Below, one piece after another: positions 37,520 to 50,989 of a stretch of DNA of 64,000 nucleotides. The notes beneath the pieces are model-generated. The model was not told the DNA's origin, made no database searches, and saw nothing but the letters and a program-made list of their open reading frames with translations. Position 1 is the stretch's first letter, and each line of letters begins with the position of its first letter. Origin of the DNA: Candidatus Eiseniibacteriota bacterium. GTDB lineage: Bacteria; Eisenbacteria; RBG-16-71-46. Where the stretch lies: contig JBBTLZ010000041.1 in the NCBI GenBank assembly GCA_038068435.1, positions 142 to 64,141 on the forward strand, written 5' to 3'. The translations under genes and the position numbers were made by a program.

Positions 37520-38896
37520 TTGCTGGTGATCCAGAACATGATCCTGCCGGGCGTTGTGCTGCTCGGGCTCGTCATCTTCGTCCACGAGCTGGGCCATTTC
37601 ATGGTGGCCAAGTGGCGGGGCGTCAAGGTGTTGAAGTTCTCGCTCGGCTTCGGACCCGCCCTGCTCCGGTTCACGCGGGGGGAGACCGAGTACCGGCTCT
37701 CCTGGATCCCGCTCGGCGGCTACGTCTCGATGGCGGGGGACGGTCCCAACGAGGACGGCTCGATGCCGATCGGCGACGAGCAGTTCCTGTCCCACCCCTG
37801 GTTCGGCCGGGCGCTCATCGCGGTCGCGGGCCCGGCGGCGAACCTGGTGACCGCCTTCCTGATCATGATGACCATCGGTCTGGTCGGGGTGACGTACCCG
37901 GACTACCCGAACGTGCTCGGGGCGCTGCCCGATACCAGCGCCGCCTACCGGGCGGGGCTGCGCGAGGGCGACCGGGTGACCGCAGTCGATGACACGCCGG
38001 TGGGGAGCTGGATCGCGATCTTCGTCACCGACAAGCTGAAGCCGGAGAAGCAGGACGCCGACTTCACCGCCAGCCGCGGTGATTCCGGCTTCACGATCCA
38101 CGTCGCCGCGGGCATGCGGAAGGCGTTCCTCGCCAGCCTCGACCGGCCCTCCGACCCGCCGGTGGTGGGCAACGTCGTGACCGGGATGCCCGCATACAAG
38201 GCCGGCCTCAAGGAACGCGACAGCATCCTCGCCGTGAACGGCACGCCGGTGAAGGTCTGGGACGACCTGCCGCGGGTGATCTCGTCGCAGACCGACCAGC
38301 CGGTCGTCCTGCGGGTCATGCGCGGCGGGCAGGTGTTCGACCTCACGGTGACGCCGGTCGATCCGGGCGGCGTCGGCGGCGCCAACGCGGGCCGCATCGG
38401 CATCGAGGCGCGACGCCTCGGCAACTATGTCGAGCGCTACCCGCTGTGGCGCTCGCTCCAGCTCGGCTTGCTCGCCACCGGCGACCTGGTGGTGAGCGTG
38501 TACCGCGGGATGTGGCTCACCGCCTCGCGGCCGCTCTATTACCGGGAGTATCTGGGCGGGCCCATGTTCATCGCCCAGGCCGCGAGCGAGCAGGCCCGGC
38601 GCGGCCTCGATGCCTATCTCCAGTTCCTGGCGATGATCAACGTCGCCATCATGGCGTTCAATCTGCTCCCCATCCCGGTGCTGGACGGCGGCCACATCAC
38701 GCTGGCGCTGCTCCAGGCGCTGCGCGGCCAGGCGATCTCCTACCGCACCTACGTCCGCTTCCAGAAGGTCGGGCTGGCGGTCATCGGTACGCTCTTCATC
38801 CTCATCCTGGCGAATGACCCGCTGCGCTGGCTGCAGCGGCAGCGTGCGCTCGACAAGGCTCCCCAGGAGGGCAAGGTTGCCCCGAACCCGCCCTAG
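37520..38896 (+). CDS. rseP: RIP zinc metalloprotease RseP (site-2 protease)
   Basis: HELGHFMVAK (HExxH) in TM1, PDZ region, and a C-terminal LDGG motif. Confidence 0.9.
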   Translation: MLVIQNMILPGVVLLGLVIFVHELGHFMVAKWRGVKVLKFSLGFGPALLRFTRGETEYRLSWIPLGGYVSMAGDGPNEDGSMPIGDEQFLSHPWFGRALIAVAGPAANLVTAFLIMMTIGLVGVTYPDYPNVLGALPDTSAAYRAGLREGDRVTAVDDTPVGSWIAIFVTDKLKPEKQDADFTASRGDSGFTIHVAAGMRKAFLASLDRPSDPPVVGNVVTGMPAYKAGLKERDSILAVNGTPVKVWDDLPRVISSQTDQPVVLRVMRGGQVFDLTVTPVDPGGVGGANAGRIGIEARRLGNYVERYPLWRSLQLGLLATGDLVVSVYRGMWLTASRPLYYREYLGGPMFIAQAASEQARRGLDAYLQFLAMINVAIMAFNLLPIPVLDGGHITLALLQALRGQAISYRTYVRFQKVGLAVIGTLFILILANDPLRWLQRQRALDKAPQEGKVAPNPP

Positions 38897-38909
38897 CGGC
38901 GTGCGAGGG

Positions 38910-40835
38910 ATGGCGACGGTGTGCCTGGCGCTCGTGGCCACGGCCGCGCTCCTCGGCCGGCCGGCCCGGGCCCAGGAGGATCTGCTGGGCGAGATCAGGA
39001 CGATCGCCGCGGTGCGCTTCGAGGGCCGGCACCGCGTAGGCGCTCGCGAGCTCCGCTCGGTGATGAAAACGCGGTCGTCCTCCCGCTGGCCATGGCGCGA
39101 GAAGCAGGCGCTGCGGATCGATTTCCTGCGCTCCGACAATCTGGCCATCCGCGACCGTTATCGCCACCACGGGTTCCTCGACGCCCACGTCGGTTACCGG
39201 CTCACCCCGTCGCGCGACTCGAGCCGGGTGGCGGTGACGTTCGTCATCCAGGAAGGCGAGCGCACGCGGGTGGCCGCGGTCACGTTCACGGGCGTGCACT
39301 CGCACCCGGAGGACCCGCTGCGCCGCAAGCTGCTGGCCCGGCCGGGCCAGCCGTTCGACCCGTTCGTGCTCCAGCTCGATACGCTCAAGATCTCCGAGCT
39401 CTACCAGGAGCGCGGCTTCCGGCCGCACGTCGTGGCGACGGCGCGCCGCGGCGAGGGGGCCGACTCGCTGCGCGTCCAGGTGAGCTTCGTGGTCGAGGAG
39501 GGGCCACAGTACCTGGTCGGCGAGGTCTACCTGTTCGGCTACCAGAAGGTGCAGGAGCGCCTCATCCGGCGCGAGCTGGTGTTGAAGCGTGACGACATCT
39601 ACCGCCGCTCGCGGATGGTGCGGTCGTGGGAGCGGCTCTACGACACGGGTCTCTTCAGCCAGGTCCAGATCTCGCCGATCGTCGATTCGACCCGCTCGCG
39701 GATGGAGTTCGAACTGCGGGTGCGCGAGCGCAAACCGCGCTGGCTCGACGCCGGCGTCGGCAGCGGCAGCGCCGAGCGCTTCCGGGCCACCGGTGAATGG
39801 GGCCACCGCAACGTGTTCGGACGCGGGTTCCAGGGGGCCCTGGCGACCCGCGTGGCGTTCAACGGCAGCGGCAAGTTCCTGCTGAGCCGCACCGAGCTGT
39901 CGCTGCTCGAGCCCTGGCTGCTCAGGACGCGCACCCGCGCGGTCGTCACGCCGTCGTACGAGCGGAGTGACGATCGCGCCGACGCCCGCTGGCTGGTGGC
40001 GCAGGAATCGCGCGGCGTCAAGTTCGAGGTGGGGCGCGAGATCAACCGCTTCAGCCGCGTGACCCTGGCCCAGAACAACGCCTGGGTCCACCAGGACCTC
40101 ACCCTGTTCGCCGACACGCTGGCCGCCCCGGTGCGGGACTCGCTCGAGCGCAGCATCGTGGCGCGCTACAGCACGCACAGCATCGCGCTCGGCGGCGTCC
40201 GGGACTTCCGCGACAATCCGCTCAACGCCACGCGCGGCTCCGTGCAGGCGCTCACCGGGGAGCTGGCGGGCGGCCCGCTCAAGGGGACCAGCAGCTTCCG
40301 CAAGGTGGTGTTCGTCTCGTCGTGGTACACGCCGTTCGCCAACGGGTGGGTGCTGGCGACGCGGGTGCGCGCCGGAGCGATCGACCCGACCGGTCACGCC
40401 CCGGCGTTCTCGATCGAGACCGAGGTGGACAGCGCGGTGGCCCGCGTGCCGCTGGGCGACCGCTTCCGGACCGGCGGGGTCAACTCGGTGCGCGGGTACA
40501 GCGAGAACTCGATCCCGCCCTCCGGCGGGCTCGCGCTGTTGCAGGCGAATGCCGAGCTGCGGATCCCGATCGCGGGGCCGTTCGGGATCGAGCTGTTCGT
40601 CGATGCCGGGAATGTCTGGGCGCGGCCGTCGTACATCAAGCTGCGGGACTTCACCCCGAAGGTGAGCCACGACCCGCTGACGCCCAACGAGGTCCGCTAT
40701 GTGTTCGGGATCGGCCCGCGCATCAACCTCCCGATCGGCCCGCTGCGTCTGGATCTGACCTGGAGCCTGCGTCCCTCACCGGGATCGTCGGCGCTGGTCG
40801 CCAAGCCGCAGTTCGCGATCGGACCTTCGTTCTAG
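38910..40835 (+). CDS. bamA: Omp85-family outer-membrane assembly protein (BamA/TamA-like, about 3 POTRA + 16-strand barrel)
   Basis: Signal peptide, POTRA-like repeats, a loop-6 RGY-type motif (VRGYSENS), and a C-terminal ...FAIGPSF. The bamA-like position after rseP and immediately before tamB. Confidence 0.8.
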   Translation: MATVCLALVATAALLGRPARAQEDLLGEIRTIAAVRFEGRHRVGARELRSVMKTRSSSRWPWREKQALRIDFLRSDNLAIRDRYRHHGFLDAHVGYRLTPSRDSSRVAVTFVIQEGERTRVAAVTFTGVHSHPEDPLRRKLLARPGQPFDPFVLQLDTLKISELYQERGFRPHVVATARRGEGADSLRVQVSFVVEEGPQYLVGEVYLFGYQKVQERLIRRELVLKRDDIYRRSRMVRSWERLYDTGLFSQVQISPIVDSTRSRMEFELRVRERKPRWLDAGVGSGSAERFRATGEWGHRNVFGRGFQGALATRVAFNGSGKFLLSRTELSLLEPWLLRTRTRAVVTPSYERSDDRADARWLVAQESRGVKFEVGREINRFSRVTLAQNNAWVHQDLTLFADTLAAPVRDSLERSIVARYSTHSIALGGVRDFRDNPLNATRGSVQALTGELAGGPLKGTSSFRKVVFVSSWYTPFANGWVLATRVRAGAIDPTGHAPAFSIETEVDSAVARVPLGDRFRTGGVNSVRGYSENSIPPSGGLALLQANAELRIPIAGPFGIELFVDAGNVWARPSYIKLRDFTPKVSHDPLTPNEVRYVFGIGPRINLPIGPLRLDLTWSLRPSPGSSALVAKPQFAIGPSF

Positions 40836-40844
40836 GAACCGGCC

Positions 40845-43800
40845 ATGAGCGAGCCCCGCGACCCCGGACCCCGGCCTCCCGAGACCCCCGAGCCCCCGCC
40901 CGGGCGCAAGCCCCACGGCCTCGCCGAAGAGCTGCGGCACGATCTCGAGGAGGTGGTCGAGCACGTCCCGCGCCCGATCCGCTGGACGGTCGGCAAGCTG
41001 GTGCGCCTGGTGGTGGTGTCGCTGGTCGTGCTGGTGGTGGTGCTGTTCGCCACCGCCGTGCTGTACGTGGCGAACCGGACCGAATGGGTGGCGCAGGAGC
41101 TGGCGCTGGTGATCAACCAGACACTGGCGAGCCGCAGCGACGTGGTGCTCGAGATCGCGGACATCAAGGGCAATCCGCTCACCGGCGTGCGCGTGCTCTC
41201 CCCGCGGGTCCGCTTCCGCGAGGGCGACGCGCCGCCCCTGCTGGAGGCGCCGGCGATGCGCCTGCGGTACCCGGCGTGGGCCCTGCTGACCGGAGGCCGG
41301 GGGCCCATCGTGATCGAGCTCGAACGCCCGGTCATCCGACTCGCGCGCGGCGAGGACGGGAAGCTCCGGCTGCCGGTCTGGAAGCCGGCGTCGTCCCGCG
41401 GCGCGCCGCGCACCCTCGACTTCGTGGTGCGGGTCCGGCAGGGCGCACTCCACACCCCGGACTCGATCGGGCACATCGAGGGACTCGACCTCGACGCGCT
41501 GGCGGCCACCGGGCGCCCGTCGCGGGTGGAGGTGCGCTCGCTGCGCTGGACGCTCGGCCCCTATGGCAGCGTGCTCGAGCGCTGCGCGTTCGATTATGCG
41601 GCCGGCGACAGTGCGCGGCTGCGGGTCACCGAGCTGCGCACCCGCGACCTGGCGCTGCGCGGACAGGCGGCCTGGAAGCCCGGCGTGGCGGACGTGAGCG
41701 CCCACCTCGAGCTGGAGCGCCTCCGCTGGCGCTGGCTCTCGCGCGTGCTCCAGCGCGGCGACCTCGACGTGGCGGGGGAGGGCCGCGGCGTGATCGCCGC
41801 GCGGGGCGGCCGCGCCCTGCAGGGCGAGTTCGCGCTCGGCGGCATCTGGGACAACCTCGCGGTCGACGCGCGGGGGGGGTTCGCGTGGCGCGACCGGCGC
41901 CTCCGCGTCGAGCCGTTGCTCGGCCGCTCGCGGGCGGGGGACCTGGACGGGGTAGTCACCTGGACGAAGCAGGGCTGGGAGATCGCCGCCGGGGTGCGCA
42001 AGGGCGATCCGTCGCGCTGGTCCATCATCGGCGTGCGGAAGTGGCCGGCCGGAGACCTCAACGGCCACTTCCGCTACAACGTGGACACGCGGGGCGTGCG
42101 CCACGCCCGGCTCGCGGCGCGTCTCACGGCCAGCGAGTGGACGGGCTGGCGTGCCGACAGTGGCACGGTGAGCGTCGATTTCACCCCGGTGGGGCCGGAC
42201 AGCTTCGCCGTGCACGCCCTGCGGCGCGGCGGCGAGATGACGCTTCGGGCGCTCTCGGACTCCACCGGCTGGCGCGGCGACTACACGCTCGCGCGCTTCC
42301 CGCTCGACGAGTGGCCGGATGGACGGGCGAGCGGGATACGCGGCACGCTCGCCACCGGGCGCGGCACGGCCGAGAGCCGGCAGGGCGGCCTGCGGGTCAC
42401 GGGGGCGCTCGACGGCGCCGTGACCGACTGGCTCGGCATCCATACCGCCCGCTGGCGCATGAGCGAGATGCACGGCGCGCTGCTGCCGGTGCCGGACCTC
42501 ACGGCGAACCTGCGTCTCGAGGATCTGTTCTTCCTGACGGTCCACTGGGACAGCGCGGGGGTGCCGATCCACGTCGGCGATGGGACGGTGGAGCTGCGGC
42601 GGCTCACGGCCGCCGCCGGGGACACGGTGCTGACCCTCGACGCGCGCGCCGAGTGGGACCGGGACGGCTGGCGGATGATCGCGGGCGCCGCCGAGGCGAG
42701 GAGCACGCAGTTCCACTGGACGGCGGACCCGCCGCTCCGGCTCTCGGGCGGCCCGCGCGGGGTGGACTTCGACCGGCTGATCGCGACCGACGGCGACGCG
42801 CGGCTGGTCATGGAAGGGCGCTGGGCCGGTCCCGGCGGCGGGTACGACTGGACCGGGCGCGCGGAGCGGCTGGACATGGGGCGCCTCGGCTTCCCCCGCG
42901 AATGGGATCTCGCGGGCCGCGCGGACGCCGAGCTGCGGGTGACCGGGGTCGCGGGCGACCCGCGCTGGGAGTTCCACGGACGCTGCCTCCAGCCCGGCAC
43001 CCGCGGCCACGCGGCCGATTCGCTGCGGGTCGTCGCCGGTGGGGGCCCCGGGCGACTCGAGCTGAGCGAGGTGCGCGGGATGCTCGACGGCGGCACGCTG
43101 TCGGTGAGCGGCGAGGTGACGGGCACCGCGCGCGCCTGGCCCGACACGCTCACCGGCTCCGGGGTGCTGCGCTGGATCGCCGATGCCTTGCGCTGGAACG
43201 GGATGCTGCGCCTCGACCGGCTGCCGCTCGACCGCCTGGAGCACATGGTGCCCGCCGCGCGTGCGTGGAAGGGCCGCGTGAGCGGGGCCCTCGAGGTCGG
43301 AGGGCGCCCGGGTGAGCCCACGCTCAGCTGGAACGCCGAGGCGGTGCCGCTCGCGTGGGGCGACTACCGCCTCGACGGTGCCGCCGCGCACGGCCGCTAC
43401 CGCGACGGGCGGCTGGAGGTGCCGGAGTTCCGGATGACGCGCGGCGGCGTGGTGTCCACGGTGAGCGGCTCGATGGCCGTCGGACTGGCACTGGGACGGC
43501 GACCCGAGCTGCCCGAGGCGCCGATGGACTGGCGTGTCGAGCTCCCGAACGGCGATCTCGCGCTGATCCCGATGTTCGTGCCGCAGATCGGCTCGGCGGC
43601 GGGACGGTTCGACCTCTCGGCCCGCCTCGGCGGCACCGCACGGCACCCGAACCTGGCCGGGACGGCGCGCATCCGCGATGGCATCGTCCGGATGGCCGGG
43701 CGCGAGGAGGTGCTGGAGGGCGTGAGCGCCGACCTGACGCTCGACGAGACCCGCATCACGCTCGACACGATGACCGCGCGGCAGCGCACGCGACAGGGCG

Positions 43801-44933
43801 CCCCCGGGCTGGTGAGCGCGCGCGGGGTGGTGGACCTCAAGGGGCTGACGCTCAAGGACTACCGGTTCGATCTCCACCTGCGTGACTTCACCGCGCTCGA
43901 ATCGGGCGTCTACGCGGCGCTCTTCGACGGCGACTTCGCGGTGACCGACGGGCGGAAGGTGAACGGCGCCACGCTGCCGCTGGTGGTCGGCAACGCCGAG
44001 CTGCGCCGTGCGGTCGTACTGTTCGACTTCGCCAACCAGAGCCAGGTGCAGCAGGTCGCGGCGGCGACGCAGCCGCTCTACTGGCTCTACCGTATCCAGC
44101 TCAACGCCACGGACAACCTGCGCTGGCAGCCGTCGGATGCGGACATCGAGTTCAGCGCCGACCTGAGGCTGGAACAGACGCCCGACTCGCTCATCGTCTA
44201 CGGGGACATGTCGGCCCTGCGGGGCAGCTATTACTATCTGAGCAGCAAGTTCAGGATGGACCGTGTCAACCTCACGTTCGACAACGTCGGCGGCGTCAAC
44301 CCGAAGCTGGACATCCTGGCGGTGACACGCGTGCCGAAGAGCGCCCTCACCGGCGGCAGGGGGCCGTCTCTGAGTTCGAGCGACGAGCGTGGGTCCGAGG
44401 ACATCACCGTGACCATCACCGGCCGCGCGAACGAGCCGGTGATGGAGTTCTCCAGCGAAAGCGGGGCCGACGAGCCCCAGGTCTTGAAGGCGCTGACCTA
44501 CGGTCCGGTGCTCACCGAGAAACCCGTCAGGGCCGGTGTGGACTTCGCAGACAACTGGGTGACCCGGAACTTGAACCGCCAGCTGTCGGACGACCTGTCG
44601 CGGGTCTTCCAGGGCTACCTGAGAGATTGGGAGCTGGCGCGCGAATCGGGCGGGCTGTTCCAGGGCGAGGGGGATGTCGTGCTGGGCGTTACCAGTCAGC
44701 TCACCCGCAAGATCGACCTCCGCTACCGGCAACGGCTGCCGGGATCCGCGCGGCCGACCGCGAACCTGACCACCACCCCCTTCGAGCGGGACGTCGCCGC
44801 CGAGTTCCGGATCAACCGGTTCTTCTACATCACCAGCGAGCTCATCCAGCGGCGCACGCTGACCAGCACCTCCGGGGCGGCGCCCACGGCCCCCGAGTTC
44901 AACCTCAACCTGAAGGCCCGGTGGGAGTACTGA
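40845..44933 (+). CDS. tamB: Translocation and assembly module subunit TamB (DUF490 C-terminus)
   Basis: N-terminal signal-anchor, very long beta-rich periplasmic span, and a conserved DUF490-like C-terminal region (...GDMSALRGSYYYLSSKFRMDRVNLTFD...). Confidence 0.85.
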   Translation: MSEPRDPGPRPPETPEPPPGRKPHGLAEELRHDLEEVVEHVPRPIRWTVGKLVRLVVVSLVVLVVVLFATAVLYVANRTEWVAQELALVINQTLASRSDVVLEIADIKGNPLTGVRVLSPRVRFREGDAPPLLEAPAMRLRYPAWALLTGGRGPIVIELERPVIRLARGEDGKLRLPVWKPASSRGAPRTLDFVVRVRQGALHTPDSIGHIEGLDLDALAATGRPSRVEVRSLRWTLGPYGSVLERCAFDYAAGDSARLRVTELRTRDLALRGQAAWKPGVADVSAHLELERLRWRWLSRVLQRGDLDVAGEGRGVIAARGGRALQGEFALGGIWDNLAVDARGGFAWRDRRLRVEPLLGRSRAGDLDGVVTWTKQGWEIAAGVRKGDPSRWSIIGVRKWPAGDLNGHFRYNVDTRGVRHARLAARLTASEWTGWRADSGTVSVDFTPVGPDSFAVHALRRGGEMTLRALSDSTGWRGDYTLARFPLDEWPDGRASGIRGTLATGRGTAESRQGGLRVTGALDGAVTDWLGIHTARWRMSEMHGALLPVPDLTANLRLEDLFFLTVHWDSAGVPIHVGDGTVELRRLTAAAGDTVLTLDARAEWDRDGWRMIAGAAEARSTQFHWTADPPLRLSGGPRGVDFDRLIATDGDARLVMEGRWAGPGGGYDWTGRAERLDMGRLGFPREWDLAGRADAELRVTGVAGDPRWEFHGRCLQPGTRGHAADSLRVVAGGGPGRLELSEVRGMLDGGTLSVSGEVTGTARAWPDTLTGSGVLRWIADALRWNGMLRLDRLPLDRLEHMVPAARAWKGRVSGALEVGGRPGEPTLSWNAEAVPLAWGDYRLDGAAAHGRYRDGRLEVPEFRMTRGGVVSTVSGSMAVGLALGRRPELPEAPMDWRVELPNGDLALIPMFVPQIGSAAGRFDLSARLGGTARHPNLAGTARIRDGIVRMAGREEVLEGVSADLTLDETRITLDTMTARQRTRQGAPGLVSARGVVDLKGLTLKDYRFDLHLRDFTALESGVYAALFDGDFAVTDGRKVNGATLPLVVGNAELRRAVVLFDFANQSQVQQVAAATQPLYWLYRIQLNATDNLRWQPSDADIEFSADLRLEQTPDSLIVYGDMSALRGSYYYLSSKFRMDRVNLTFDNVGGVNPKLDILAVTRVPKSALTGGRGPSLSSSDERGSEDITVTITGRANEPVMEFSSESGADEPQVLKALTYGPVLTEKPVRAGVDFADNWVTRNLNRQLSDDLSRVFQGYLRDWELARESGGLFQGEGDVVLGVTSQLTRKIDLRYRQRLPGSARPTANLTTTPFERDVAAEFRINRFFYITSELIQRRTLTSTSGAAPTAPEFNLNLKARWEY

Positions 44934-45091
44934 GAGCCCCTCCCGGGGCGGATCGCGGTAGGCGGGCCGACGCCCGGCCCCGCGTAGGCTAGAATGTCCG
45001 AACCCGGATCGGGGGTCGGCGTATTCAAAGGGGAGCACATCGCCCCCGGGCGTCAACCACGAAGGCCGGTCGCCAGGAAAGGATCATCCGC

Positions 45092-48000
45092 ATGAGCATG
45101 CTGAGGGGCGTGGCATGGGTCGCGCTGGCGTTCGCGGTCTCCGCCGTCACCCCGCGGGGGGCGGACGCGCAGTACTTCGGTCAGAACAAGGTCCAGTACC
45201 GTGGGTACGACTGGCGGTCGCTCACCTCGGATCATTTCGAGGTGTACTTCTACACCGGGCTCGACAGTCTCGCGCGCCGCACCGTGGACCTGGCCGAGAA
45301 GACCAACGCGATGCTGTCCGAGCGTATGGGCCACGCCCTCGGCCGTCGGGTGCCCATCATCCTCTACGGGTCCCACAACGATTTCTCCCAGACCAACGTC
45401 ACCCCCCAGCTGATCGATGCCGGCACCGGCGGCTTTACCGAGGCGTTGCGCAACCGCGTGGTCCTGCCGTTCACCGGGTCGTACGAGGACTTCCGCCACG
45501 TCGTGGTGCACGAGCTGACCCACGCCTACATGTTCGACATGCTGTACAGGGGCTCGGCGGCCTCGCTGATCGCGCGCCAGAGCTTCTTCTCGGTGCCCCT
45601 GTGGTTCGCCGAGGGCCTGGCCGAGTACTACTCGCTCGGGATGGATTCCAACGCCGAGATGTTCCTGCGCGACGGCGCGGTGGCCGGCTACCTGGCGCCG
45701 CTCCCGTATGGCGGCGGCTACCTGGTGTACAAGCAGGGCCAGTCGGCGCTCGCCTACCTGGTGGAGCGGCACGGCGAGGACCGCCTGCGTGACCTGTTGC
45801 AGCGCATCCGCGTCACCCGCAACTTCGACCGCGCGTTCCAGCGGAGCATGGGCCTGTCGGTCGAGCGCTTCGACGAGCAGTGGCGGACCTGGCTGCGCAA
45901 GACCTACTGGCCGACCGTGGCGACCAAGGAGAACCCGGAGGAGTTCGCCCGCCGGCTCACCGACCACCGGCGCGACGAGAGCAGCCTGAACACCTCGCCC
46001 TCCGTCTCGCCGCAGGGGGACCGCATCGCCTACTTCTCAGACCGCCGCCAGTACACCGACGTCTACCTGATGTCGGCGCTGGACGGAAAGGTCATGCGGC
46101 GCGTCATCCGCGGCGAGCGCAACGTCAAGTTCGAGAGCATCCCGTCGTTCCGCAGCGCGCTCACCTGGTCGCCCGATGGGAGCACGCTCGGCCTCACGGC
46201 CAAGTCCGCGGGCCGGGACGTGCTCTACCTGGTCTCGGCCAGGAACGGCCGGGTCGTGAAGCGCCTGGATCTCGATGTGGACGCCCTCTACTACCCGGCA
46301 TGGTCCCCGGTGTCCGATTCGCTGGTGGTCGTGGGGGTGAAGGACGGACGCTCCGACCTGTGGCTGGTCGATACCGGGACCGGAGCGGTGACGCGCCTCA
46401 CCGACGACACCTGGGACGAGAAGGAGCCCGCGTGGACCCCGGACGGCCGCACGCTCACGTTCTCCTCCGACCGGCTGGCGCCGCTCGTGCTGCATCCGCG
46501 GCGGCTCGAGCGGGGGTTCGGCACCTACGGCCTCTTCGACCTGGAACTCGCGAGCGGCCAGGTCAGGCGCGTGCTCGACACGCACGGTGACGACCACTCC
46601 CCGGCGTGGTCGCCGGACGGACGCAAGCTGGTGTTCATCACCGACCGGAGCGGCACCCCGAACATCTGCCTCTATGACCTGGCGGACAGCTCGATCACGC
46701 AGCTCACCGACGTGCTGGGCGGCGTGAGCAGTCTCTCGTGGTCGCGCGAGAACGACCGGCTGGTCTTCTCGGCGTTCAATCGGGGCGGCTTCGACGTGTT
46801 CGCGGTCAAGGAGCCACTCTCGATCGACGCGGTGGTGGCGCGCCTGCGGCGCCAGACGCCGCAGGCGGTGTTGAGTCTCGCCGCGGCCGCCCGAGAAGCG
46901 GAGCGCGATACCACGCCGCCGCCGCCCTCACTCGGGGCCCTGGCCGGCGCGTGGCCCGAGTCGCTGACGACGGTGACCGACACCCTGCGCACCGCCCGCC
47001 CGACCGACGAAGGGCCGATGACCATGGGCGGGCATGCCGATTCGTCGCGGGTGGCCGCGGAACGGCCGTTCGAGCCGCCGCCCTGGAGCGGTGGCCGGTT
47101 CCATCCGTATCCGGCGCCGCGCGACACCGTCCCGCGGCTGGTCGAGCGCACGCCGTTGGTCGAGCGCGGCGGCCCGTTCGCGCTCCCCGACTCGGTGCTC
47201 GACCAGCCGCCGGCGCGCTACAAGGTGAAGCTCGCCCCCGACTACGCGGGCGGCGGTTTCTACGCCGCCTCGAGCTTCGGCTTCATCGGCAGCACCCAGT
47301 TCCTGCTCAGCGACTTCCTCGGCGATCACAGCCTCTACATCGCCAGCGACGTCTTCAGCTCCTCGCTCCAGGAGACCAACGCGCTGGTCCTCTACAACTA
47401 CCTGCCGCGGCGCTGGGACTTCGGTGGCGGGCTCTTCCACTTCAAGAACTACTACTCTTCGCGGGTCACCACCCTCGGCGATGCGCTCGGCAGCCCGCGC
47501 CTGTTCTCCGAGCGCAACTTCGGGGCGCTCGTCAGCGCGTCGTACCCGTTCGACCGGTTCCGCCGCATGGAGTTGAACTTCACGCAGCTGTTCGCCGAGA
47601 TCCGGTTCTTCGACCCGCTGTTCGGCACGCCGCTGGAGCGGAAGTTCCAGTCGGTGTCGTCCCCCTCGGTGTCGCTGGTGGGGGACAACGCGCTCTACGG
47701 CTACTTCGGACCCGCGAACGGGCACCGCTACAACCTGACCTACAGCCCCTCCCTGCCGGTGTTCCCGAACGGGCTCTCCTACCACACCGTGACCGCCGAC
47801 ATCCGGCACTATTGGGACCTGACGCACGGCTACACGTTCGCGGTGCGGGGACTGGGCGGGTACAGCGCCGGTCTCGACCCGCGGACCTTCTTTGTCGGCG
47901 GCTACTCGACCCTGCGTGGCTTCGACGATTTCTCGCTCGAGGGCCGGCGGGTGGCGATCGGCAACGTCGAGTTCCGCTTCCCGTTCATCCAGCAGCTGGG

Positions 48001-48298
48001 TCTGGTCGGACCGGTGCCGCTCGGGGTCTTCAACCTGCGCGGGGCGGTGTTCGCGGACTTTGGCGCGGTGTGGGACGCGGGGGACCAGGTGCAGCTGAGC
48101 GTCATCTCCCGTGCTGAGAATGACCCGCTCTCCGCGCCGACGCCGCGCGGCGTGTTCAAGGGCGGCGCGTTCAGCTACGGCGCGGGCATCCGCACCGCGA
48201 TCTACTTCTTCATCCTCAAGGTGGACGCGGCCTGGAACACCGATTTCCGGACCAGCAGCACGCCACGCTGGCATTTCAGCGTCGGCCCCGAGTTCTGA
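45092..48298 (+). CDS. 1068-aa three-domain outer-membrane protein: peptidase-MA-like (HExxH...EGLAEY) domain, TolB-like PD40 beta-propeller, and an Omp85-type beta-barrel
   Basis: Signal peptide. VVVHELTHAY...WFAEGLAEYY (gluzincin-like). Six PD40-like repeats (SPQGDRIAYFSDR, SPDGSTLGL, TPDGRTLTFSSDR, SPDGRKLVFITDR ...). C-terminal GGYSTLRGFDDFSLEGRRVAIGNVEFRFP ... FADFGAVWDAG ... WHFSVGPEF. Confidence 0.85.
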   Translation: MSMLRGVAWVALAFAVSAVTPRGADAQYFGQNKVQYRGYDWRSLTSDHFEVYFYTGLDSLARRTVDLAEKTNAMLSERMGHALGRRVPIILYGSHNDFSQTNVTPQLIDAGTGGFTEALRNRVVLPFTGSYEDFRHVVVHELTHAYMFDMLYRGSAASLIARQSFFSVPLWFAEGLAEYYSLGMDSNAEMFLRDGAVAGYLAPLPYGGGYLVYKQGQSALAYLVERHGEDRLRDLLQRIRVTRNFDRAFQRSMGLSVERFDEQWRTWLRKTYWPTVATKENPEEFARRLTDHRRDESSLNTSPSVSPQGDRIAYFSDRRQYTDVYLMSALDGKVMRRVIRGERNVKFESIPSFRSALTWSPDGSTLGLTAKSAGRDVLYLVSARNGRVVKRLDLDVDALYYPAWSPVSDSLVVVGVKDGRSDLWLVDTGTGAVTRLTDDTWDEKEPAWTPDGRTLTFSSDRLAPLVLHPRRLERGFGTYGLFDLELASGQVRRVLDTHGDDHSPAWSPDGRKLVFITDRSGTPNICLYDLADSSITQLTDVLGGVSSLSWSRENDRLVFSAFNRGGFDVFAVKEPLSIDAVVARLRRQTPQAVLSLAAAAREAERDTTPPPPSLGALAGAWPESLTTVTDTLRTARPTDEGPMTMGGHADSSRVAAERPFEPPPWSGGRFHPYPAPRDTVPRLVERTPLVERGGPFALPDSVLDQPPARYKVKLAPDYAGGGFYAASSFGFIGSTQFLLSDFLGDHSLYIASDVFSSSLQETNALVLYNYLPRRWDFGGGLFHFKNYYSSRVTTLGDALGSPRLFSERNFGALVSASYPFDRFRRMELNFTQLFAEIRFFDPLFGTPLERKFQSVSSPSVSLVGDNALYGYFGPANGHRYNLTYSPSLPVFPNGLSYHTVTADIRHYWDLTHGYTFAVRGLGGYSAGLDPRTFFVGGYSTLRGFDDFSLEGRRVAIGNVEFRFPFIQQLGLVGPVPLGVFNLRGAVFADFGAVWDAGDQVQLSVISRAENDPLSAPTPRGVFKGGAFSYGAGIRTAIYFFILKVDAAWNTDFRTSSTPRWHFSVGPEF

Positions 48299-48331
48299 GC
48301 GCGGCGGTCGCCGCGACCGAGAGCCCCTCGA

Positions 48332-48360
48332 TTGTCCGTCGGGGGGCTTTCGGCTAGATT
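48332..48360 (+). promoter_or_regulatory. Candidate promoter TTGTCC-N17-TAGATT for uvrD
   Basis: Hexamers with a 17-nt spacer, about 45 nt before the TTG start of uvrD. Confidence 0.35.
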
Positions 48361-48405
48361 GCGGCCGTCCCCACGCGCCCACCGTCACCCGGAAGAACCC
48401 AGCCT

Positions 48406-50706
48406 TTGGAACCGTTCCCGGACCTCAATCCCGAGCAGCGCGCGGCCGTCGAGCACGCCGAGGGCGCCGTCCTGGTGGTCGCGGGGGCCGGCAGCGGCAA
48501 GACCCGCGTGCTCACCGCACGGGTCGCCCACCTGTTCGCGCGCGGCGTACCGCCGGAGGCGGTGCTCGCCTTCACCTTCACCAACCGCGCGGCGCGGGAG
48601 ATGCGGGAACGCATCGCCCGCACGCTCGGCGAGGCGGCGGAGCGCGTCTGGGTCGGGACTTTCCACGGCACCGGTGTGCGCATCCTGAGGCGGGAGACGC
48701 GGGCAGGGGCGGTGGACGGCCTGCGGGCGGAGTTCGTCATCTACGATCGCGAGGACCAGGAGTCGGTGCTGGGCGAGGTCGTGCAGGCGCTGGGGCTCCC
48801 GGAAGGAGCCCTTCGCACCGGTGAGGTGCTGCGGCGTATCGCCGACGCCAAGAACGCGCTGGTCTCCGCTGACGAGCTGGAACGACTGGCCGTGAGCCCG
48901 CACGAGCGCCGCATCGCCGAGTGCTACCGGCGCTACCAGCAGGCGCTCCGCGCGCAGGGGGCGCTCGACTTCGACGACCTGATCGCCGAGGTCGTGCGGC
49001 TGATGCGCGCCCGGCCCGAGGTGGCCGAGCGCTACCAGCGGCGCTTCCGCCACGTGCTGGTCGATGAGTACCAGGACACGAATCACGCGCAGTTCCGACT
49101 GGTCCAGGCGCTGGCGGCGGGACACGGGAACCTGTTCGTGGTCGGCGACGACGACCAGTCCATCTACGGCTGGCGCGGGGCGGACCTCTCGAACGTGCTC
49201 GACTTCGAGCAGGCATTCCCGGGTGCTGCCGTCATCCGGCTCGAGCAGAACTACCGGTCGACCGCCAACATCCTGCACGCGGCGAATGCCGTCATCGCCC
49301 ACAACCGCGACCGGAAAGGCAAGCGGCTGTGGTGCGAGCGCGAGGAGGGCGCCCGCCTGCGCTTCGTGCTGGCGGCCGACGAGCGGGACGAGGCGCGCAA
49401 GGTGCGCGCGTTCCTCGAGGCACGCCTGCGTCGGGGCGGGCGGCTCGACGAATGCGCGGTGCTCTACCGCACCAACGCGCAGTCGCGCGCGCTCGAGACC
49501 GAGCTGCGCCAGCAGGGGCTGCGCTACGAGATCGTGGGCGGCATCTCCTTCTATGCGCGCCGCGAGGTGAAGGATCTGCTCGCCTACCTGCGGCTGGCCG
49601 CCAACCCCGCCGACCGGGTGGCCTTCTGGCGCGTATGGAACACCCCACGGCGCGGGCTCGGCGACGCGGTGCGGGGGCGCCTCGAGGCGCGCGACGCCGA
49701 GCGGCCGCTGGAAGCACTGCGGGCCCTGGCGGCCGAAGGGGCGCTCAAGGGCGGCGCCCGCAGCGGCGCCGGGGCGTTCCTGTCGCTGATGGACGAGCTG
49801 CGGGCGGGCCTCGCCGCGCCCCCCGCCGAGCTGCTGCGGCTGGTGCTCGAGCGCACCGAGTACCTGCGCGTGCTGGACGAGAACGCGGAGGGGGAGGCCG
49901 GCGACCGGCGGGCGAACGTCGAGGAGCTGGTGGCGACGGCGGCGGAGTACCGACCGGCCGACGGGCCGGACGGCGTGCTGGGTTTTCTCGCCGAGACGGC
50001 ACTGCTCACCGACGCCGACCGTCTCGAGGAGGGCGCCGACCGCGTGCTGCTCCTCACCGCGCACAACGCGAAGGGCCTTGAGTTCCCGGCGGTGGTGGTG
50101 GCGGGCCTCGAGGAAGGGCTCTTCCCCCATGCCTCGGCGCTCGAGGAGCCGCGCCAGCTGGAGGAGGAGCGCCGCCTCTTCTACGTCGCGCTCACCCGCG
50201 CCCGGGACGAGGTGCTGCTCACCGCCGCCGCCTACCGGCGGCGGATGGTGCCGGGCGGCGCGTTCGTGGCCCGCGGCGGCCAGGTGTCGCGATTCGTCGA
50301 CGAGATCCCCGCCGAGCTCCTCGACCGCGAGGAGTCGCCGGTGATCGCATGGGCCGGGGCCGATTCGGGCTCCGGCCGATGGGCCGGGGATCCCCCTTCT
50401 GGGCGGGACCCGTCGCTTCGCTCCGGCCCCGGGGCACCCACGGCGCGCGAAGCGCGGCGTGGGTCGCGCGGGACCCCGGCCCTTCGCCCGGCGCATGACG
50501 CCAGGTCGGGTCCCGCCTACCGCACGACCGGGGCGCTGGCGCGCACCGTCGGGCGGGAGGTCTATCATGAGACCTTCGGCCTCGGGGTGGTGGTGATGGC
50601 CGAGGGCGAAGGCAGCGAGGTCAAGTTCTCCGTGCGCTTCGGCACCGTGATCCGCAAGGTGCTGGGGCGCTTCCTCACCGGAGGGGTCGATGTCGATCAG
50701 CCGTGA
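48406..50706 (+). CDS. uvrD: ATP-dependent DNA helicase (UvrD/PcrA/Rep family)
   Basis: Walker A AGAGSGKTRVLT, helicase motifs I-VI, and a C-terminal UvrD-C/Tudor-like tail. Confidence 0.92.
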   Translation: MEPFPDLNPEQRAAVEHAEGAVLVVAGAGSGKTRVLTARVAHLFARGVPPEAVLAFTFTNRAAREMRERIARTLGEAAERVWVGTFHGTGVRILRRETRAGAVDGLRAEFVIYDREDQESVLGEVVQALGLPEGALRTGEVLRRIADAKNALVSADELERLAVSPHERRIAECYRRYQQALRAQGALDFDDLIAEVVRLMRARPEVAERYQRRFRHVLVDEYQDTNHAQFRLVQALAAGHGNLFVVGDDDQSIYGWRGADLSNVLDFEQAFPGAAVIRLEQNYRSTANILHAANAVIAHNRDRKGKRLWCEREEGARLRFVLAADERDEARKVRAFLEARLRRGGRLDECAVLYRTNAQSRALETELRQQGLRYEIVGGISFYARREVKDLLAYLRLAANPADRVAFWRVWNTPRRGLGDAVRGRLEARDAERPLEALRALAAEGALKGGARSGAGAFLSLMDELRAGLAAPPAELLRLVLERTEYLRVLDENAEGEAGDRRANVEELVATAAEYRPADGPDGVLGFLAETALLTDADRLEEGADRVLLLTAHNAKGLEFPAVVVAGLEEGLFPHASALEEPRQLEEERRLFYVALTRARDEVLLTAAAYRRRMVPGGAFVARGGQVSRFVDEIPAELLDREESPVIAWAGADSGSGRWAGDPPSGRDPSLRSGPGAPTAREARRGSRGTPALRPAHDARSGPAYRTTGALARTVGREVYHETFGLGVVVMAEGEGSEVKFSVRFGTVIRKVLGRFLTGGVDVDQP

Positions 50707-50989
50707 CGATGTGCGGAAGATCGCCGAGCTGGCGCGGCTCGAGATCGCCGAGGATCGCATCGAGCGCATGGCGCGCGAGCTCTCGGCGGTGCTCGATTAC
50801 GCCGCGTCGCTCGGGCAGCTCGATCTGCAGGGCTGCGAGCCCACCGCCTTCGCGCCGGCGGAGGCCCCGCTGCGCGAGGACGGCCTCGACGAACGGCGGC
50901 TCACTCCCGAGATGGCACTGGCCGCCGCACCCGAGGCGGAGCAGGGCTTCTTCTTGGTGCCACCGATCGTGGAGAACCTGAACCCGTGA
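50690..50989 (+). CDS. gatC: Asp/Glu-tRNA(Asn/Gln) amidotransferase subunit C
   Basis: GatC family (VRKIAELARLEI...). Overlaps the uvrD 3' end by 17 nt. Confidence 0.9.
   Translation: MSISRDDVRKIAELARLEIAEDRIERMARELSAVLDYAASLGQLDLQGCEPTAFAPAEAPLREDGLDERRLTPEMALAAAPEAEQGFFLVPPIVENLNP

Follow-up and report, generated by a model that had tools for sequence, protein, structure and literature searches.

We analyzed a window of 64,000 nucleotides (the whole stretch of DNA considered here) from a Candidatus Eiseniibacteriota bacterium. On its plus strand, an ORF with an ATG start (45092..48298, stop included) encodes, according to the ORF list and its translation, a protein of 1068 aa. The features of the locus are the following, residue numbers being those of this protein:

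38814..40835, plus strand: BamA-like POTRA and Omp85 protein, 673 aa, directly after rseP (Pfam)
40845..44933, plus strand: TamB, 1362 aa (Pfam TamB PF04357, 90.7 bits)
44934..45091, plus strand: 158-bp gap between tamB and the gene (alignment with loci L001 and L006)
45092..48298, plus strand: complete peptidase-propeller-Omp85 gene (ORF, GC3, full-length homologues)
45092..45169, plus strand: Sec signal peptide, residues 1-26 (read from the sequence)
45170..45916, plus strand: gluzincin (clan MA) zinc-peptidase domain, residues ~27-275
45176..45199, plus strand: conserved motif FGxNKVxY at the mature N-terminus, residues 29-36 (alignments)
45509-45523, plus strand: candidate catalytic HExxH motif (HELTH), residues 140-144
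45611-45628, plus strand: EGLAEY (residues 174-179) of the motif WFAEGLAEY, with the candidate zinc ligand Glu174
45947..46816, plus strand: six-bladed PD40/TolB-type beta-propeller, residues ~286-575 (Pfam, phmmer, model)
46817..47224, plus strand: disordered Pro-rich linker, residues ~576-711 (pLDDT, composition, length survey)
47225..48295, plus strand: 16-strand Omp85-type barrel, residues 712-1068 (Pfam, model, Foldseek, motifs)
48318..48352, plus strand: 15-bp GC-rich hairpin with a weak U-tail, just past the stop (RNA fold)

The GC3 of the ORF (0.94) is typical for real genes of this window, which has 70% GC. More than 100 homologues are full-length with the same single ORF, and the full-length relatives share 59-89% identity; this conservation rules out that the 1068-aa ORF results from a frameshift or a gene fusion artefact. 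The first-pass annotation had read three domains in one secreted-type protein, and both Pfam and an AlphaFold2 model bear this out: Peptidase_MA_2, PD40 and Omp85 (PF01103) were recovered in the predicted order, all above gathering scores, and the expected propeller and 16-strand barrel are both present in the model (mean pLDDT 74.6, pTM 0.51). Given this pTM and a disordered linker, the orientation of the domains relative to each other is unreliable in the model. The signal peptide ends with A-D-A and has no lipobox Cys, its cleavage site being placed by the AxA rule. The FGxNKVxY motif follows; across 42 diverse members, it does not vary at G30 and N32 and reaches at least 90% conservation at F29, K33 and Y36, and the segment has low pLDDT in both structure models.

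The Peptidase_MA_2 match covers residues 72-269 (46.2 bits, cutoff 32.4), within an alpha/beta domain that spans residues ~40-272 in the AlphaFold2 model. The HExxH motif, a downstream Glu as zinc ligand and a thermolysin-like fold, which characterize the clan MA gluzincins, are all found, and Tyr213 is a further candidate catalytic residue. The motif pair HExxH...EGLAEY had been correctly noticed in the first-pass annotation, but with a spacing of 27 residues; EGLAEY in fact lies 29 residues after His144. H140, E141, H144, E174, E178 and Y213 do not vary among 42 members that share only 29-59% identity, indicating that the active site is under selection. The candidate active-site residues also align with the zinc site of collagenases. 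Judged by the invariance of this site across very divergent members, the zinc peptidase is very likely active. The domain shares only 13-16% identity with M9 collagenases, M30 lugdulysin/hyicolysin and M1 aminopeptidases, gluzincins that carry other accessory domains and are secreted or cytosolic instead of barrel-anchored; the Pfam M9 model stays below its cutoff on the 1068-aa protein (22.4 against 26 bits). Its nearest solved folds are those of the secreted collagenases and lugdulysin, which would be just as compatible with an extracellular role, a point we count against the periplasmic location proposed below. A homologue search with the peptidase domain only returned chiefly short fragments, and detected the domain in Latescibacterota, Krumholzibacteria, Zixibacteria, Gemmatimonadota, Fibrobacteria and Verrucomicrobia.

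The second domain scores 83.2 bits against PD40 (cutoff 20.9), and the model displays 24 strands forming six four-stranded blades over residues 286-572. It resembles the TolB structures (phmmer E 1e-16; Foldseek TM(target) ~0.52), with which the 1068-aa protein has in common a six-bladed PD40 propeller. The TolB N-terminal alpha/beta domain is however missing, and the TolB model TIGR02800 covers only the propeller, with 134.4 bits for a cutoff of 343, so that an identity as TolB was rejected. As this propeller is most similar to TolB, the protein could be imagined as a TolB-like tether or remodeller of the envelope, in which the propeller would bind a Pal/OmpA-type protein and the metallopeptidase would act on peptidoglycan peptides or outer-membrane lipoproteins, so that outer membrane and cell wall would be coupled. 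MurA catalyzes the first committed step of peptidoglycan synthesis, and murA is located directly upstream of the gene in 19 of the 80 loci compared; the linker, too, would be able to span the distance to the peptidoglycan layer. Nevertheless, the domain and the score that are characteristic of TolB are lacking, the peptidase fold matches protein or peptide hydrolases and not known murein peptidases, and nothing points to a Pal partner, which makes such a coupling highly doubtful.

Between the propeller and the barrel, residues 605-681 have a pLDDT below 50 and the linker contains 16% Pro. It was found in all 42 members examined, with variable sequence and length (75-191 aa). A long linker that is always present although its sequence is not conserved is consistent with a tether.

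The C-terminal part matches PF01103 over residues 773-1068 (65.9 bits, cutoff 24) and forms 16 long strands between residues 715 and 1065 in the AlphaFold2 model, similar to BamA barrels by Foldseek (E 3e-12, TM(target) ~0.6). It contains the loop-6 motif TLRGF (940-944), the beta-13 motif F987-A-D989-F-G991 and the C-terminal Phe1068, which align with VRGY, FVDAG and PSF of the neighbouring Omp85 protein; among 42 members, R942 never varies and G943 is conserved in at least 90%. Both the barrel and the motifs expected for the Omp85/TpsB superfamily are thus found, and the protein resembles BamA and TamA by its 16 strands, its loop-6 (V/L)RG(F/Y), its beta-13 FxDxG and its C-terminal aromatic residue. 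BamA and TamA carry POTRA domains, whereas we detected neither a PF07244 match in the 1068-aa protein nor a POTRA-like fold between propeller and barrel in the model, in agreement with the earlier proposal that a protease and a propeller replace them. An identity as BamA or TamA was rejected, the curated models being far under their cutoffs: TIGR03303 (BamA) matches only the barrel, with 43.2 bits for a cutoff of 297. The barrel is only 24% identical to that of the BamA-like neighbour, and a barrel-only search for the nearest Omp85 outside the family yielded nothing but fragments of family members.

An enzyme placed N-terminal to such a barrel could be displayed at the cell surface in a type V-like manner, the linker threading the barrel or a hybrid barrel being formed, and the module would then digest external proteins for nutrition. 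In solved Omp85 structures, the loop-6 and FxDxG motifs hold loop 6 in the lumen, and the barrel retains both of these lid-lock motifs. The contexts of the gene, described below, are made of housekeeping envelope genes and not of nutrient-uptake loci. Moreover, PlpD, the Omp85 protein that serves as the model for surface display, keeps its N-terminal enzyme domain in the periplasm, and its authors consider it energetically unfavourable for a domain that is already folded to cross an Omp85 barrel (PMC11116518). We therefore regard surface display as unlikely.

Upstream of the gene, Pfam confirmed the Omp85-tamB pair reported in the first-pass annotation. The 38814..40835 product contains three POTRA and an Omp85 domain (148.8 bits) and reaches 244 bits with TIGR03303, under the cutoff of 297; it follows the genes rpsB-tsf-pyrH-frr-uppS-dxr-GT2-rseP and thus occupies the canonical bamA slot after rseP. 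The link to BAM/TAM that had been drawn from this pair holds for 12 of the 80 loci, with the order rseP-bamA-like-tamB, which is conserved only in Eisenbacteria and Krumholzibacteria-like genomes, but not elsewhere: apart from the murA loci, about 24 of the 80 show a context made of an hldE-like gene, a TamB-like gene and RNase R. In this last order, that of Ignavibacteria/Bacteroidota, the TamB-like gene lies two genes upstream with RNase R in between. All three recurrent contexts concern envelope biogenesis, which supports the envelope role proposed below; about 25 of the 80 loci lack all of them, which we count against it.

A tamB or TamB-like gene is consequently found upstream in two independent gene orders (~36/80 loci), and at locus L064 the gene comes immediately after rseP, in the slot usual for bamA. 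Together with the functional Omp85 motifs kept by the barrel, this would suit an alternative outer-membrane partner of TamB/BamA, the barrel being an insertase or a lipid-transfer terminus with TamB and the protease-propeller substituting for POTRA as the substrate-handling unit. TamB docks on POTRA domains, which are absent here, and an Omp85 protein that bears them already adjoins tamB in the window; furthermore, the unrelated RNase R gene intervenes in the Ignavibacteria/Bacteroidota order, and many loci have no TamB nearby. Such a partnership with TamB thus appears very improbable.

The gap between tamB and the gene contains the element GCTAGAATG (44988-44996), conserved in close relatives in the alignment with L001 and L006, within which TAGAAT (44990-44995) is a possible -10 box. 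The only other copy of the GCTAGAATG motif in the window is located upstream of uvrD (48406..50706, plus strand), the real downstream gene. The conservation of this element and its second copy suggest that the peptidase-propeller-Omp85 gene may have its own promoter. A purine-rich ribosome-binding site is present at 45075-45083. RNA folding of the 158-bp gap revealed no significant hairpin after tamB, so that read-through from tamB into the gene is possible. The gap is thus compatible with a separate start as well as with the co-expression that the first-pass annotation had considered probable. Past the stop, 48299-48352 folds at -38.7 kcal/mol (z = -4.8), and the hairpin at 48318..48352 is likely a transcription terminator; a consensus scan for sigma-70 and intrinsic terminators around the gene gave nothing usable. 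The minus-strand ORF 48385..50769 was rejected as a gene since it has no Pfam match and the plus-strand uvrD occupies the region.

These data directly support the architecture, the folds, the conserved catalytic residues, the broad distribution and the envelope gene contexts. Our best reading, to which we give a probability of roughly 0.45, is that the protein is an outer-membrane-tethered periplasmic metallopeptidase dedicated to envelope protein turnover. Sec would export the protein, and its C-terminal 16-strand Omp85 barrel would insert into the outer membrane, chiefly to anchor the protein there and perhaps also to offer a docking site. Both termini of Omp85 barrels face the periplasm. 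From this established topology and the PlpD precedent, we infer that the peptidase is periplasmic, and the flexible tether of ~135 residues would hold the M9/M1-like zinc peptidase and the TolB-type propeller in this compartment. The peptidase, predicted from its sequence to be catalytically competent, would be packed beside the six-bladed propeller, which may bind substrates or limit access to unfolded chains, as in propeller-containing peptidases; since the model does not place the domains reliably relative to each other, gating by the propeller is an analogy only. The substrates, like the location and the propeller role, are inferred: near the outer membrane, the enzyme would trim or degrade envelope proteins that are unfolded or mis-assembled, in a housekeeping role of envelope maintenance. 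Without POTRA, there is no known route for the barrel to take substrates or to bind TamB, which we count against this turnover model.

This metallopeptidase model resembles PlpD and the patatin-like Omp85 proteins ("type Vd") in having an enzyme domain N-terminal to an Omp85 barrel. PlpD, however, carries a lipase and one POTRA, has a short helical linker and forms dimers, while the 1068-aa protein combines a metallopeptidase with a propeller, has no POTRA and contains a long disordered linker. A functional analogue of the proposed role is BepA, a periplasmic zinc HExxH protease of the M48 family with a TPR domain, which docks on BAM and acts at the site of outer-membrane assembly. The quality-control role suggested in the first-pass annotation is plausible. 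In a further reading, the subfamily would be a self-contained quality-control device for outer-membrane proteins whose barrel captures stalled or mis-folded beta-barrels at its lateral seam or docks beside BamA-TamB, a tethered, propeller-gated zinc peptidase degrading the captured substrates from the periplasm and FGxNKVxY possibly being a docking strand. We consider this device improbable; if real, it would do the work of BAM plus BepA in a single fused protein that lacks POTRA.

The first-pass annotation could match the architecture to no described family, which proved to be wrong. Judged by its domain architecture, the gene is a member of the "WD40-like" Omp85 subfamily defined by Heinz & Lithgow 2014 (PMC4104836), who proposed a BAM-related role for it. 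Their Table S2 gives PF07676 repeats plus PF01103 for the members, and Table S3 lists for each a BamA/TamA barrel match, a TolB match and a "best aminopeptidase hit"; their text covers the propeller alone, as a "BamA-BamB fusion", the peptidase appearing in the supplementary table only. WD40-like Omp85 is also listed among the conserved subfamilies flagged as uncharacterised and worth study (PMC11116518). A literature search for a functional study of the peptidase-propeller-Omp85 architecture found none, and in a 2025 paper on the Bacteroidota BAM neither a peptidase nor a propeller subunit is mentioned. A genome scan with a 10-sequence alignment identified relatives in at least 532 species genomes (Eisenbacteria, Zixibacteria, Ignavibacteria, Bacteroidota and others), with full-length homologues in an Ignavibacterium album MAG and in Calditrichales and Bacteroidetes genomes. 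The architecture is thus already catalogued and widespread, which largely amounts to the outcome that the first-pass annotation had named as refuting its proposal.

The locus is therefore an ordinary subfamily member from an uncultured Eisenbacteria genome and leaves existing knowledge unchanged. To the 2014 catalogue, our analysis adds an invariant zinc-peptidase site, a constant disordered tether and recurrent envelope-biogenesis neighbours, which together turn the outer-membrane protease role into a concrete, testable hypothesis. As in the WD40-like subfamily, PD40 (PF07676) precedes a PF01103 barrel in the 1068-aa protein and POTRA is missing, a feature that also marks the Metallo and noNterm subfamilies (PMC4104836). 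An aminopeptidase/collagenase N-terminus, a TolB-like propeller and a BamA/TamA-like barrel are likewise found in both, and Ignavibacterium, Caldithrix/Calditrichales and Bacteroidetes are common to the subfamily and to the relatives found here. The architecture is thus identical, and the 1068-aa protein represents it in Candidatus Eisenbacteria, a phylum absent from the 2014 sampling.

The ORF that the first-pass annotation placed at 45092..48298 (+) is present, starting with an ATG and encoding 1068 residues, with a third-position GC of 0.94 that matches the other real genes of the window (overall GC roughly 71%), almost all of which lie on the + strand. A partial protein labelled Candidatus Eisenbacteria is 99% identical to its product. 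The best full-length homologues belong to that phylum too, which places the window in an uncultured Eisenbacteria genome. Judged by third-position GC, the + strand carries 41 of the 42 confidently coding ORFs of the window, with a cumulative GC skew that climbs almost monotonically; the whole 64 kb is strongly co-oriented, probably within one replichore.

Three domains had been proposed for this protein (a zinc peptidase, a propeller and an Omp85 barrel), and Pfam recovered them in the predicted order, each above its gathering score, while finding no POTRA domain. The AlphaFold2 model, built with 59 homologues as input (mean pLDDT 74.6), displayed both the 16-strand barrel and the six-bladed propeller expected by the annotation.

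Features of the gene product
Signal-peptide helix (AlphaFold2)
Residues about 40-272: alpha/beta peptidase domain (AlphaFold2)
Residues 72-269: Peptidase_MA_2 (Pfam, 46.2 bits, gathering cutoff 32.4)
Residues 286-572: propeller, 24 strands in six four-stranded blades (AlphaFold2)
PD40 (Pfam, 83.2 bits, gathering cutoff 20.9)
Residues 605-681: disordered stretch (AlphaFold2)
Residues 715-1065: barrel of 16 long strands (AlphaFold2)
Residues 773-1068: Omp85, PF01103 (Pfam, 65.9 bits, gathering cutoff 24)

The signal peptide is of the Sec type. In the PDB, Foldseek found BamA barrels as matches for the barrel (E about 3e-12, TM(target) about 0.6) and TolB as a match for the propeller (TM(target) about 0.52). 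A TolB-like role, in which the protein would couple the cell wall with the outer membrane, is improbable. NCBIfam gave sub-threshold matches only (TolB, 134 bits vs a cutoff of 343; BamA, 43 bits vs 297), and no curated protein-naming model covers the protein. In an alignment with the neighbouring Omp85, which bears POTRA domains, the barrel motifs TLRGF (940-944), F987-x-D989-x-G991 and the C-terminal Phe1068 fall opposite VRGY, FVDAG and a C-terminal Phe. The two barrels share 24% identity and are old paralogues rather than products of a recent duplication.

Among 1.84 billion cluster representatives searched, 1609 proteins matched at E <= 1e-30. Nearly all of the best 150 (those down to E 1e-128) have 930-1190 residues and align from about residue 25 across the propeller into the barrel. 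Among 42 representatives with 29-59% identity to the query, invariant residues include H140, E141, H144, E174, G175, E178, Y213 and R942, while G943, F987, D989 and most positions of a motif at the mature N-terminus, FGxNKVxY, are at least 90% conserved. As read from the sequence, the zinc-peptidase site is intact and strongly conserved. The segment joining propeller and barrel (75-191 residues, median about 128) is present in every member surveyed, acidic or Pro-rich, and never conserved in sequence. PF26549 and PF26550 occur in the precomputed Pfam lists of family members and, judged from their occurrence in fragments, sit in or near the propeller region.

Scanning one genome per GTDB species turned up at least 532 encoded relatives, of which the best 80, all full-length, come from Eisenbacteria, Zixibacteria, Ignavibacteria, other Bacteroidota, Krumholzibacteriota, Latescibacterota, Calditrichales, Marinimicrobia, Fidelibacterota and Poribacteria; the N-terminal domain alone as query also retrieved Gemmatimonadota, Fibrobacteria and Verrucomicrobia fragments. 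In an unclassified bacterial MAG (L044, 17257-18708) and in a Latescibacterota locus (L054, 17364-18839), the full-length gene is followed, about 4 kb downstream, by the gene of a second protein that clusters with the family (roughly 485 aa, probably propeller-only).

The gene order in the window is rpsB-tsf-pyrH-frr-uppS-...-dxr-glycosyltransferase-rseP, followed by the POTRA-bearing omp85, tamB, the gene of interest, uvrD and an amidase gene, in agreement with the Omp85-tamB pair annotated directly upstream.

Features around the gene of interest
37520..38896: rseP ORF
38814..40835 (+): longest ORF of the POTRA-bearing omp85
40845..44933 (+): tamB
44988-44996: GCTAGA(A/T)TG, first copy, about 95 nt upstream of the gene of interest
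45092..48298 (+): gene of interest
48318-48352 (+): perfect 15-bp GC-rich hairpin between its stop codon and uvrD
48353-48361: GCTAGA(A/T)TG, second copy, about 45 nt upstream of the uvrD start

The rpsB-tsf-pyrH-frr-uppS-dxr-rseP cluster is classic, and the slot after rseP is canonical for bamA. Being directly after rseP, the POTRA-bearing gene thus occupies the bamA slot, and the pair looks like the BamA-TamB arrangement reported for Borrelia. The POTRA domains of its protein probably number four, not five, since the protein counts only 673 aa and its BamA-model match begins at model position 147. The longest Omp85 ORF and the rseP ORF share 83 bp, and translation of Omp85 probably begins at a start codon further downstream.

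The gap between tamB and the gene of interest is 158 bp, and no significant hairpin was found after tamB by RNA folding (z = -0.07). The element GCTAGAATG is kept in the two closest loci (L001 and L006) amid otherwise diverged sequence. This conservation, and the fact that the only other GCTAGA(A/T)TG in the 64 kb, also intergenic, precedes uvrD, suggest a -10-like promoter element, which may be of a type belonging to the Eisenbacteria lineage. The hairpin before uvrD (54-nt stretch 48299-48352, -38.7 kcal/mol, z = -4.8) is terminator-like in its predicted fold; a consensus terminator scan missed it because its U-tail is weak. The gene of interest may have its own promoter in addition to read-through from tamB.

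Across the best 80 of the related loci, rseP-omp85-tamB-X-uvrD (X being the relative) was found in 12, each Eisenbacteria or Krumholzibacteria-like. In one further, divergent Eisenbacteria genome (L064, 8008-12385, 38% identity), the gene takes the usual bamA position immediately after rseP, and the contig terminates inside it. About 24 loci, from Ignavibacteria/Bacteroidota, carry within the 1-10 kb upstream a PfkB kinase, a cytidylyltransferase, a 1500-aa TamB-like protein (NCBIfam TamB, 52.9 bits, sub-threshold; weak DUF748 match) and RNase R, then X. The kinase and cytidylyltransferase are hldE-like (ADP-heptose synthesis). murA is directly upstream in 19 loci (Zixibacteria/Ignavibacteria), where the gene represents a second paralogue type, and roughly 25 show none of these contexts. 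The TamB link recurs in two different gene orders and is not universal; that the protein acts as an alternative TamB/BamA partner has a low probability.

The protein thus combines a Sec-type signal peptide, a zinc-peptidase site, a TolB-type propeller, a long flexible linker and an Omp85 barrel bearing the functional motifs of its family, in envelope-biogenesis contexts. An Omp85 barrel has its N- and C-terminus on the periplasmic side. PlpD was shown to keep its enzyme domain in the periplasm (PMC11116518), and on these two grounds the peptidase-propeller module would most likely be suspended in the periplasm on its tether. There, near the outer membrane, its task would be the breakdown of unfolded envelope polypeptides, and the propeller would bind substrates or filter them, by analogy with other propeller-containing peptidases; we give this reading a probability of about 45%. 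Display at the cell surface in a type V-like manner is unlikely. It is favoured by the collagenase-like fold and the passenger-like linker; against it stand the precedent of PlpD and the lid-lock motifs of the barrel.

No functional study of this architecture was found in the literature searched, and the metalloprotease, WD40-like and patatin-like subfamilies "have not been well characterized" (Hanson et al. 2024, PMC11116518). To what is known of the family, this locus adds incremental information only. Homologues bear generic database names ('Tol biopolymer transport system component', 'BamA/TamA family outer membrane protein', 'PD40 domain-containing protein'). The architecture, which the first-pass annotation could not match to a described family, is already catalogued: the ten subfamilies of the Omp85/TpsB superfamily include a 'WD40-like' or 'WD40-Omp85' one (Heinz & Lithgow 2014, PMC4104836), whose Table S2 holds 62 proteins having PF07676 repeats with or without PF01103, with members from, among others, Caldithrix, Rhodothermus, Ignavibacterium, Chloroherpeton, Anaeromyxobacter, Sorangium and many Bacteroidetes. 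Among later publications, PMC5582053 cites WD40-Omp85 and PMC11358297 refers to the subfamily by its 'WD40 and peptidase domains'. The peptidase-propeller-Omp85 architecture is thus known and widespread, and the gene product adds a new member, from Eisenbacteria, to the WD40-like Omp85 subfamily.
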